Origin: Escherichia phage 92CQ
Sequence record: PV682554.1
DNA length: 64,000 nucleotides
Strand: one strand, 5' to 3'
Each line of letters opens with the position of its first letter. Position 1 is the stretch's first letter. Below are positions 23,720-24,987 of the stretch, in pieces. The position numbers and the translations under genes are program-made. The notes below the pieces were generated by a model, which was not told the origin of the DNA, made no database searches, and was given only the letters and a program-made list of their open reading frames with translations.

Positions 23720-24154
23720 TTAGTTTAAAATTTCTTTTGCAATGGTAGAAGCAAGTTTTCCATCATATTGATTCGGATACTCTGCTTTAAGGTGTTTCAT
23801 CATATCTGGCATTTTCTTGCCTGTCAAGGCAAATTCTTCGGCAATAGCTCGAAGATCATCTTCAGATAGCATTTCTGGTAAATATTTCTCCAGAGTGGTG
23901 ATATCACGCATAGCTCGCTCACATTTGCTAAGGGAAGCATTAACTTTCTTAAGCGAGTCTAGTTCCTCTTTAGCGTGTGCAATACCAATCTTAACAATGT
24001 TAATCATAATATCGTCTTCTGATTTGTTTAGATTTGCCTTTTGAGTACGAGCAAGGTCAAACTCACCAATAATATTAGTTAACAAAGCAAAAGCACCCTT
24101 ATCGGTTGTACGTGCTAAGATACGATCTGCTTTCATTTGTGTCACAATAGACAT
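23720..24154 (-). CDS. YqeY/GatB-C-terminal-domain-like protein (144 aa)
   Basis: C-terminal LEKYLPEMLSEDDLRAIAEEF...DGKLASTIAKEIL aligns by eye with bacterial YqeY. Confidence 0.75.
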   Translation of the reverse strand: MSIVTQMKADRILARTTDKGAFALLTNIIGEFDLARTQKANLNKSEDDIMINIVKIGIAHAKEELDSLKKVNASLSKCERAMRDITTLEKYLPEMLSEDDLRAIAEEFALTGKKMPDMMKHLKAEYPNQYDGKLASTIAKEILN

Positions 24155-24166
24155 TCTATTCTCCTC

Positions 24167-24739
24167 TTATTTGCTAATGCTTTGAGTCTTGTTTACAACA
24201 CGGTTTATTGCCAGTGAAGCCCTAGGCTCCGCAATACCTGTTGCATAGATATAAGGATGACCTCTTGGAGACTCCCTCATACCGAATGAACCTAATTCTA
24301 AACCATATTCATCCTCTACGTCAACCCCAATATTAGTGGGTACTAAATATGTTTTAACTCCATAATAAGTAGAGAAGAAACAGCGCATAGCGTTAGCATA
24401 CTCTTCAATTGTAGCATCAGGGTAGAACTCAATCAACTCCAATTTCAAGAAAATATTAAAATGGGTATCATCTAAATTTTCTTCTGTACGGTAACATGGT
24501 GTTAGTGCCATATACGGATTACCTGCTGCAAATTCAAAACCATCCTTCTCCATTTGCAGGAAAGATTGTTCTGCACTAGCTACATAGTATTTACCGTTAG
24601 GATGCCCTAATGGGCGATCCTCTTTATTTTCTGGTAGTGTGTACGTTAGTATATCAGCATCCACGAGATATGGAACTTCTAACATTTGTGCAAATCGACC
24701 ATAGTAATCAATAGCTTGAGCTATTACTGCAACATTCAT
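24167..24739 (-). CDS. class-II aminoacyl-tRNA-synthetase-like ligase core (AsnA/AspRS-like), truncated (190 aa)
   Basis: Motif-2-like ...TPCYRTEENLDDTHFNIFLKLELIEFY and motif-3-like ELGSFGMRE...GIAEPRASLAI. Confidence 0.5.
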   Translation of the reverse strand: MNVAVIAQAIDYYGRFAQMLEVPYLVDADILTYTLPENKEDRPLGHPNGKYYVASAEQSFLQMEKDGFEFAAGNPYMALTPCYRTEENLDDTHFNIFLKLELIEFYPDATIEEYANAMRCFFSTYYGVKTYLVPTNIGVDVEDEYGLELGSFGMRESPRGHPYIYATGIAEPRASLAINRVVNKTQSISK

Positions 24740-24987
24740 GATCGACCTCCATTGCGGAATGCACGTTTAGTAATGTTTGACATAGTGATCAAATCTTGAA
24801 GCGTCATATCAGGAAAATGCTGTTCAAGAACACCTTCAACAGCGCCTACAATATCTGATAACTCAATAAGTTGCATCAGCTTGCAGTCTTGATCAATAGC
24901 ATCTTGAAGTTCATAAAGCTCTTCTTGAATCTTAGCAACAGAACCATATTCCTCTTTGCTAATCTCCTTCAAATGATACCCTGCCAC
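24736..24987 (-). CDS. MazG-like nucleotide pyrophosphohydrolase (83 aa), tentative
   Basis: All-alpha acidic pattern KIQEELYELQDAI...ELSDIVGAVEGVL resembles MazG EExxE/ExxD motifs. Confidence 0.45.
   Translation of the reverse strand: MAGYHLKEISKEEYGSVAKIQEELYELQDAIDQDCKLMQLIELSDIVGAVEGVLEQHFPDMTLQDLITMSNITKRAFRNGGRS

Follow-up and report, generated by a model that had tools for sequence, protein, structure and literature searches.

The known paralogues of the aminoacyl-tRNA synthetases (aaRSs) that have no tRNA-binding domain, such as AsnA, HisZ, EpmA, the amino acid:carrier-protein ligases and YadB, do not charge tRNA for translation and act on other acceptors (PMC9437257). The first four of these, shorn of tRNA binding, each revealed an unexpected chemistry. 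We describe here a class II aaRS-like protein of only 190 amino acids (aa), the mini-synthetase, which is encoded by Escherichia phage 92CQ together with a small MazG-like protein. The window that was analysed is a stretch of 64,000 nucleotides from this phage (sequence record PV682554.1), a phi92-like (Justusliebigvirus) E. coli myophage. Its region 22000-27000 shares 97-99.5% identity with vB_Eco_PATM, EmilieFrey, alia, PHB05 and about 50 other phages. An initial annotation, made from the sequence alone, had pointed to three open reading frames (ORFs) in one operon, namely a MazG-like gene, a minimal class II aaRS-like ligase and a YqeY-like gene. All three were recovered, with every motif string that it had quoted, in one co-directional block of the replication region:

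24736-24987, minus strand: 83-aa MazG/HisE-like all-alpha unit, a putative nucleotide pyrophosphohydrolase; GTG start behind AAGGGGG; phrog_6408
24736-24739, minus strand: ATGA overlap between the stop of the 83-aa gene and the start of the 190-aa gene, read from the sequence
24167-24739, minus strand: 190-aa minimal class II aaRS-like core derived from seryl-tRNA synthetase (SerRS), a predicted adenylate-forming enzyme; phrog_4806
23720-24154, minus strand: 144-aa YqeY (GatB-tail-like) domain protein; Pfam YqeY

A GGAGG lies inside the upstream 83-aa gene, and the YqeY-like gene starts 12 nt past the 190-aa stop, with AGGAG ahead of it. The quoted strings TPCYRTEE, ELGSFGMRE and GIAEPRASL are residues 80-87, 148-156 and 168-176 of the mini-synthetase. 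A promoter and terminator scan did no better than shuffles.

Linkage of the mini-synthetase to a MazG-like gene

Relatives of the mini-synthetase were gathered as 80 viral loci, with four more added by exact look-up, and all ORFs were searched with small hidden Markov models (HMMs). This search took in 85 loci, 71 of which remained after dereplication. A member of the 83-aa family was present in 82 of the 85 loci and was linked to the mini-synthetase in 68 of the 71. The arrangements were as follows (dereplicated loci):

45 of 71 loci: 83-aa gene adjacent upstream of the mini-synthetase, mostly overlapping
11 of 71 loci: 83-aa gene adjacent downstream of the mini-synthetase
10 of 71 loci: 83-aa gene upstream, 115-1,395 bp apart
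2 of 71 loci: 83-aa domain and mini-synthetase in one ORF
3 of 71 loci: 83-aa gene not found

Among the best 150 of 1,596 library representatives, eight more proteins, of 260-274 aa, combine an N-terminal core with a C-terminal 83-aa domain, so that at least 10 fused proteins exist in total. The model of one of them, P0150 (predicted local distance difference test, pLDDT, 95.8; predicted template modelling score, pTM, 0.87), suggests that the two domains pack in a defined way.

At the genome level, tblastn in 50,697 phage genomes (partner query, 82 aa) found the core in 272 records and the partner in 218. Core and partner records numbered 111 and 112 in Escherichia phages, 13 and 13 in Caulobacter, 10 and 10 in Pectobacterium, 8 and 8 in Cronobacter, 7 and 7 in Brevundimonas, 6 and 6 in Klebsiella, and 6 and 6 in Erwinia. 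The partner fell short in Acinetobacter phages (core 61, partner 9), because their divergent partner of about 200 aa is mostly missed by the 82-aa query. Taken together, the flips in gene order, the translational coupling, the repeated fusion and the matching phyletic patterns are strong evidence that the mini-synthetase and the 83-aa protein work as one unit.

The conserved unit is thus the MazG-like gene plus the mini-synthetase. The initial annotation had treated the MazG-like gene as incidental and had cast YqeY as the partner of the ligase. These roles are reversed: the MazG-like protein is the obligate partner, and YqeY lies within 10 kb in only 3 of the 71 dereplicated loci. Unbiased clustering of the neighbour ORFs in the 71 loci yielded no third conserved gene.

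An exhaustive HMM search of 1.84 billion cluster representatives returned 1,596 proteins at E <= 1e-3 (clusters counted at 50% identity), 1,067 of them at E <= 1e-30, and nearly all of the best 150 of the 1,596 are 170-200 aa long. A scan of one genome per species, over 185,579 bacterial and archaeal species, gave 15 loci, all on metagenome-assembled or unclassified 'bacterium' contigs, many of which are probably phage. Given this near absence from cellular genomes, the mini-synthetase family is essentially viral, and it is typical of large phages of 100-600 kb. Carriers are phi92, phAPEC8 and BASEL coliphages, Acinetobacter T4-like phages, Caulobacter phiCbK-like phages and megaphages. The family is therefore large, nearly virus-only, and present in well-studied coliphages.

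As the initial annotation had proposed, the 144-aa protein carries a YqeY domain (Pfam PF09424, residues 38-143, 30.4 bits for a gathering score of 27; B. subtilis YqeY, PDB 1ng6, E 6e-5). The function of cellular YqeY is uncharacterised (PMC13374519). The HMM search of all ORFs found YqeY in 5 of the 85 loci. It is adjacent to the module in the phi92-like group, 0.8 kb upstream in locus L004 and 7.6 kb off in locus L057, and no match was found in the module-bearing phAPEC8-like coliphages and Acinetobacter phages. YqeY-like genes occur in 150 phage records, led by Vibrio phages (52), then Sinorhizobium phages and others. YqeY as a conserved third component was rejected, on its count in the dereplicated loci and on this differing distribution among phage genomes. 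The 144-aa protein is best read as a lineage-specific neighbour, co-transcribed here and outside the conserved module. Its closeness to the module (less than 1 kb) in two unrelated lineages exceeds what we would expect by chance, as a matter of judgement rather than of a computed value, and is a weak hint of an RNA-related role.

The 190-aa core and its active site

The 190-aa protein matches phrog_4806 (E 5e-71). Single-sequence searches (Pfam, NCBIfam, and the PDB by phmmer) returned nothing significant, and its identity was therefore resolved only by profiles and structure. The curated SerRS thresholds (Pfam tRNA-synt_2b, NCBIfam SerRS equivalog) were not reached, and no aaRS model in either library came to threshold, which sets the protein apart from a standard SerRS. 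It has the antiparallel beta-sheet core fold of class II aaRSs. In the structural comparison, the scores below its best match were 16.6 for HisRS, 16.5 for PylRS, for T. thermophilus SerRS (1ser) and for the amino acid:carrier-protein ligase Bll0957, 16.4 for HisZ, 13.5 for AsnA and 12.5 for yeast AspRS; Foldseek was concordant. The family profile searched against the PDB matched Aquifex SerRS (2dq3) at E 7.7e-5 and AspRS at 1.4e-3.

A profile of 195 family sequences was then compared by hhalign with ten E. coli class II enzymes. SerRS came first (93%, E 3e-7, 176 aligned columns) and AspRS second (47%, E 1.9e-4), followed by PheS (7%, E 5.4e-3). All other enzymes reached at most 2.2% (E 0.02-0.39), among them HisRS at 1.2%, AsnA at 0.6% and GlyQ at 0.1%. 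SerRS is thus the nearest relative of the core, which we call SerRS-derived for this reason. The initial annotation had placed it closest to AsnA and AspRS; AsnA and the class IIb enzymes (Asp, Asn, Lys) were rejected as closest relatives on these comparisons.

The same alignment with E. coli SerRS gave the residue equivalences, and conservation was scored over the 195 sequences, most of which represent clusters at 50% identity. Motif 1 reads VPYLV in both proteins. E57 (in SAEQSF) corresponds to E239 of E. coli SerRS (in PTAEV), R84 and E86 of motif 2 (TPCYRTE) to R268 and E270, F97, K99 and E101 (FLKLE) to F287, K289 and E291, D140 to D342, E148 and S151 (ELGS) to E355 and S358, R155 to R368, and T167 and R173 of motif 3 (TGIAEPR) to S391 and R397. 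S55, E57, R84, F97, K99 and E101 are 100% conserved; for P81, C82, D140, E148, G150, S151, T167, P172 and R173 the figure is 99.5%. An acidic residue, E or D, occupies position 86 in 96% of the sequences. The Pro of motif 1, P23, is 97% conserved, so that the dimer-interface motif is kept, and C82, the sole invariant Cys, aligns with the Cys of TPCFR in bacterial-type SerRS.

From the T. thermophilus SerRS-seryl-adenylate structures, we take the motif 2 Arg to bind the alpha-phosphate, the Phe at the position of F97 to stack on adenine, the Glu and Ser at the positions of E148 and S151 to bind Mg, and the motif 3 Arg to bind the gamma-phosphate. The equivalents of E239, E291 and S/T391 presumably hold the amino group and the side-chain hydroxyl of serine. 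Since the residues of the adenylation site are 96-100% conserved, the pattern reads as the signature of an active adenylate-forming enzyme, and not of a HisZ-like pseudo-enzyme. The reading of the 190-aa protein as a minimal class II aaRS-like ligase, already put forward in the initial annotation, survives the check on motifs 2 and 3, whose catalytic residues, R84 and R173 included, are intact.

These data bear directly on whether the protein could be a non-catalytic regulatory pseudo-synthetase, like HisZ or SLIMP, that would modulate some other enzyme and have an amino acid or host SerRS as its ligand. The PHROGs label of the family ('histidyl tRNA synthetase'), the resemblance of its partner to HisE and the preserved dimer motif all fit such a role. 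HisZ, however, has lost its catalytic residues, whereas here the motif 2 and motif 3 Arg, the Mg-binding Glu and Ser and the adenine-stacking Phe are 99.5-100% conserved; the E. coli host moreover uses the long form of HisG, without HisZ, and HisRS scored very low in hhalign. We therefore hold a pseudo-synthetase to be very improbable.

The 190-aa protein starts at a point that corresponds to SerRS residue 169 and has nothing ahead of motif 1, so the whole N-terminal coiled-coil arm, by which SerRS binds tRNA-Ser, is gone; no Seryl_tRNA_N match was found in the protein. The motif-2 loop, the part of SerRS that touches the acceptor stem, has lost 6 residues, and its conserved residues are acidic and hydrophobic, none basic. 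Compared with SerRS, about 17 residues are also lacking from the hairpin that links the E-x-x-S motif to motif 3. No extra domain in the 190-aa protein replaces these missing elements.

A genuine minimal SerRS, or a non-specific charger of the 3' ends of host or phage tRNA, would thus have to find its RNA binding in trans. The source could be the MazG-like partner, YqeY in the phi92-like phages, or the arm of host SerRS in a heterodimer, which is conceivable because SerRS binds tRNA across its dimer. Such an enzyme would sustain charging during infection, or repair it after the action of a tRNA-targeting defence. The SerRS-like active site and the kept dimer-interface motif speak for it, and bacterial GlyRS, whose small class II catalytic subunit relies on another subunit to bind tRNA, offers a precedent. 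The lack of both a tRNA-binding arm and an anticodon-binding domain and the short, acidic motif-2 loop speak against it, as does the behaviour of the known truncated aaRS paralogues, which charge no tRNA for translation (PMC9437257). On balance we consider tRNA charging unlikely; the evidence from the partner and from neighbouring genes is taken up below.

The partner, the proposed reaction and the genomic context

The 83-aa protein matches phrog_6408 (E 2e-43). Its own match to Pfam PRA-PH (HisE) is weak (E 0.034, 15 bits for a gathering score of 21.3). Among 30 diverse members of its family, 24 match PRA-PH at E <= 0.1 (best 2.8e-5) and 5 match MazG, and the homologue of locus L042 passes the cut-off of 21.3 with 22 bits. 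The family profile searched against the PDB gave MazG-like 1vmg and PRA-PH 2a7w and 1yxb, all weakly (E 0.03-0.3). In the same 30 members Y3, H4, I8, K18, E21, E22, E25, E41 and D44 are invariant and D28 is conserved in at least 90%, so that the EExxE...ExxD metal-binding pattern on two helices is intact. Placement of the 83-aa protein in the MazG/HisE all-alpha superfamily of nucleoside triphosphate (NTP) pyrophosphohydrolases, which bears out the 'MazG-like' label of the initial annotation, is supported at superfamily level, and the retained metal-binding acidic residues argue for a catalytic role.

Longer forms of the partner were also seen. In four jumbo-phage loci (L038, 9070-10017; L051, 9175-10002; L054, 8953-9858; L050, 10567-11436) it has an N-terminal domain of about 180 aa, in which H43, H59-D60-H61 and H137 are invariant. 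This domain had no match in Pfam or the PDB. Its invariant His and Asp residues may form a metal site, perhaps cupin-like, and it could add a third catalytic activity to the module. In Acinetobacter T4-like phages and relatives (L003, 7405-8001; L025 and L041, 9357-9980) the partner is 198-207 aa long, with a C-terminal extension of about 120 aa.

Taking both components together, we tentatively favour a two-component adenylate-forming enzyme, probably making seryl-AMP, that is coupled to nucleotide pyrophosphohydrolysis and serves a non-canonical acceptor; in this specific form we would put it somewhat short of an even chance. The more general idea of a non-canonical substrate for aminoacylation or amidation is the one favoured overall. 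To judge from the conserved active-site residues, the core would bind ATP-Mg along with an alpha-amino acid that is small and hydroxylated, serine being the likeliest, and form an enzyme-bound aminoacyl-adenylate. The aminoacyl group would then pass to an acceptor that is not a tRNA body recognised in the conventional way, our best guess being a nucleotide-like molecule, or just the 3' end of an RNA, held by the 83-aa component. This component would cleave a nucleoside-polyphosphate bond of the substrate or product, which may render the reaction irreversible or release the product. In the phi92-like phages, the YqeY protein added downstream may supply RNA or tRNA binding in that lineage.

This scheme is preferred over tRNA charging for four reasons: aaRS paralogues without an arm or an anticodon-binding domain use other acceptors (PMC9437257), the motif-2 loop does not suit an acceptor stem, the universal partner is a predicted polyphosphate hydrolase and not an RNA-binding module, and YqeY, the sole RNA-binding candidate, is mostly absent. 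A related possibility, which we regard as clearly less probable than the scheme itself, is that the pair is a tRNA-independent aminoacyl-nucleotide synthetase that makes or edits an amino acid-nucleotide conjugate, for example a 2'(3')-O-seryl nucleotide. If true, it would represent a viral metabolite or a counter-defence chemistry of a new class, and the core, at about 175-190 aa, would be a natural functional class II 'urzyme'-sized enzyme.

Genes recurring near the module were counted within 10 kb on either side in the 71 loci:

GIY-YIG homing endonucleases: 13 of 71 loci
RlaP RNA-repair nucleotidyltransferases: 9-11 of 71 loci
Phosphoesterases: 6 of 71 loci
NadR-like genes: 6 of 71 loci
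Ribonucleotide reductase (RNR) subunits: 5-6 of 71 loci
NAMPT: 5-6 of 71 loci
DUF4326: 4-7 of 71 loci
CCA-adding enzymes: 4 loci

Some of this context, and some of the earlier results, weigh against the two-component scheme with a non-canonical acceptor. In 23 of 70 loci a tRNA gene stands no more than 10 kb from the module, and in 9 of 70 the distance is about 1 kb or less. These genes, with RlaP and with YqeY near the module in 3 lineages, lean towards tRNA. Per-sequence Pfam scans matched the class IIb model tRNA-synt_2, weakly, in 8 of 35 members and tRNA-synt_2b in none, so the family is a deep, atypical branch. Serine as the amino acid is a best guess that comes only from residue equivalence. 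Lastly, we know of no enzyme that unites the two activities, and the acceptor-transfer and hydrolysis steps are thus without precedent.

For tRNA charging itself, the tRNA genes, RlaP and CCA-adding enzymes count in its favour, together with a nucleotidyltransferase resembling the head of CCA-adding enzymes in the window (see below) and the YqeY domain, kin to the tRNA-binding tails of GatB and GlnRS, which is adjacent here and close by in the unrelated L004. Yet the nearby tRNAs are not preferentially tRNA-Ser, which makes up 24 of 199 and in 2 of 23 loci is the tRNA closest to the module; YqeY is missing from most loci; and the metal-binding acidic residues of the partner point to polyphosphate catalysis rather than RNA docking. 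In the window itself there is no tRNA gene.

Another product of the same active site would be a nucleotide signal. The polyphosphate of a second NTP, presented by the MazG-like unit, could attack the aminoacyl-adenylate, and the resulting Ap4A (diadenosine tetraphosphate), Ap4N or other nucleotide would serve to reprogramme the host or to cap RNA. Class II aaRSs, SerRS among them, form Ap4A from the aminoacyl-adenylate, as was reportedly described by Belrhali et al. in 1995. The full adenylation site kept without the tRNA-binding elements, the NTP-binding fold of the partner and the frequent neighbours from nucleotide and NAD metabolism (RNR, NAMPT, NadR-like) would all suit such a synthase. 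However, MazG/HisE enzymes hydrolyse the alpha-beta bond and do not present NTPs as nucleophiles, and tying the synthase to a hydrolase of similar compounds would be futile. We find a nucleotide-signal synthase improbable. As a whole, the neighbourhood mixes nucleotide and NAD metabolism with tRNA and RNA-end themes, and it does not settle the acceptor. PADLOC, run on the three proteins and a fusion, gave no defence-system match.

In the window, the module sits in a long minus-strand block of replication genes that includes a DNA methyltransferase, a family A DNA polymerase, a primase-helicase, three glycosyltransferases, a UvrD-like helicase and a DUF4326 protein. The helicase and the three glycosyltransferase genes, one with a weak TAGT match, flank the three genes of the module region. 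The neighbours most relevant here are:

28102-28488, minus strand: DUF4326 protein (E 1.4e-21)
24998-26773, minus strand: UvrD-like helicase, upstream of the module
22065-23702, minus strand: 545-aa two-domain protein; the N-terminal 316 aa are phrog_15930, the C-terminal part is a GT-A/TAGT-like glycosyltransferase
21104-22117 and 20148-21092, minus strand: two paralogous GT-B glycosyltransferases, coming after the 545-aa gene
14288-14881, minus strand: 197-aa nucleotidyltransferase with only the head domain of CCA-adding/poly(A) polymerases (phrog_1614, E 2e-34; PolyA_pol, E 0.0017)

Such surroundings could suggest a hypermodification of DNA or nucleotides, an idea that the initial annotation had also raised; the ligase would attach an amino acid to a modified base alongside the glycosyltransferases. 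A Mom-like gene 6 kb from the module in L004 goes in the same direction, as Mom illustrates that aminoacyl donors can modify phage DNA (PMC13219725). It is nevertheless the weakest rival, and we think it highly doubtful. Neither glycosyltransferases nor other modification genes are conserved near the module in the 71 loci, glycosyltransferases being neighbours only in the phi92/phAPEC8 lineage, and the phage groups that carry the module are very different and have no known modification in common. Phi92-like phages are, moreover, 'exceptionally susceptible' to restriction-modification systems (PMC8594841), which makes such a modification unlikely.

Several other features of these loci were noted. 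The 197-aa nucleotidyltransferase is possibly a minimal tRNA 3'-end enzyme within the replication block. DUF4326 proteins are predicted to process the terminal phosphates of ADP-ribose derivatives (PMC9503650). The UvrD-like helicase is intein-free here, and near-identical relatives (JohannJBalmer, phiWec187, W22, PD114, ECGD1) carry an intein in the same gene, their helicase match being split into two pieces about 1 kb further apart. The phrog_15930 label of the 545-aa protein, 'ribonucleotide reductase', is without Pfam support. The 3' part of its gene (22000-22753) has no match above 85% nucleotide identity in 55 otherwise near-identical relatives, and its glycosyltransferase domain therefore looks like a swapped cassette. 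Five 'Campylobacter phage' records (MG065656.1 and four others; host, C. jejuni) match phi92-like phages of E. coli at about 98% identity; probably the host label is wrong or the records are contaminants.

In L004 (1-16549 of a 125-kb contig) the module lies among a Mom-like gene (PF25680), several DNA methyltransferases, YqeY, a metallophosphatase, a Macro domain protein, an R2K ATP-grasp protein and an adenylosuccinate-synthetase-like gene. The latter is possibly PurZ, which would suggest a 2-aminoadenine (Z) genome. Four large-phage loci (L038, L048, L054 and L057) have tRNA genes with a CUA anticodon near the module, called 'Pyl' by ARAGORN. These are probably amber suppressors, hinting at stop-codon reassignment.

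Comparison with described systems

The individual resemblances reported here are not new, since databases already label these genes 'putative seryl-tRNA synthetase', 'histidyl tRNA synthetase', 'tRNA amidotransferase' or 'hypothetical', and one record notes a 'MazG-type fold' for the partner. In the literature we found genome annotations only, and no functional study or analysis of the family, of its obligate pairing or of the fusions; the jumbo-phage and NAD/ADP-ribose surveys of the Aravind group do not mention it. This is a new family of aaRS paralogues whose two-component architecture is undescribed; its present annotation as seryl- or histidyl-tRNA synthetase is wrong, and its MazG-like partner is mostly left 'hypothetical'. 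With about 175-190 residues the mini-synthetase ranks, to our knowledge, with the smallest natural class II cores that have a complete active site, and it bears on ideas of minimal ancestral synthetases. The biochemical question is concrete, and cheaply testable with two small soluble proteins.

Among the truncated class II proteins, AsnA, with the core of AspRS/AsnRS, acts without tRNA, as the mini-synthetase may do, and the motif-2 region of our family partly aligns without gaps to class IIb (AspRS/AsnRS-type) enzymes. The amino acid:carrier-protein ligases of the Bll0957/Atu2573 type, reportedly described by Mocibob et al. in 2010, are about 300 aa long, have their origin in the zinc-dependent methanogen-type SerRS and have a carrier-protein gene as neighbour. 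Here the partner is a nucleotide pyrophosphohydrolase, to judge from its sequence; no carrier-protein-like family was evident among the recurrent neighbours within 10 kb on either side in the 71 loci, only some of these families having been checked by Pfam. HisZ is catalytically dead and works with HisG, whereas the catalytic residues are invariant here, and the families that recur near the module in the 71 loci included no evident HisG-like gene. HisZ and HisE are not, as far as we know, found as a complex or a fusion.

The partner shares with the MazG/HisE/dimeric dUTPase superfamily a common helical unit of about 80 aa with the EExxE...ExxD pattern (Moroz et al. 2005), and differs from it by an N-terminal G-Y-H motif and a C-terminal G-x-R of its own. 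The 144-aa protein belongs with the YqeY/GatB C-terminal domains, but is standalone and phage-encoded. In heterotetrameric GlyRS (GlyQ/GlyS), as presumably here, a small class II catalytic subunit depends on a separately encoded second subunit. GlyS, however, is a large, multi-domain, tRNA-binding protein, unlike the 83-aa partner, and GlyQ stood last of the hhalign values quoted above.

The obligate coupling of an aaRS-like core to a predicted nucleotide pyrophosphohydrolase has no described counterpart. Bacterial SerRS, the nearest relative, has about 430 aa, with an arm and a longer motif-2 loop that are missing from the 190 aa of the mini-synthetase. In contrast to SerRS, the mini-synthetase family has an obligate MazG-like partner and is in essence found only in viruses.

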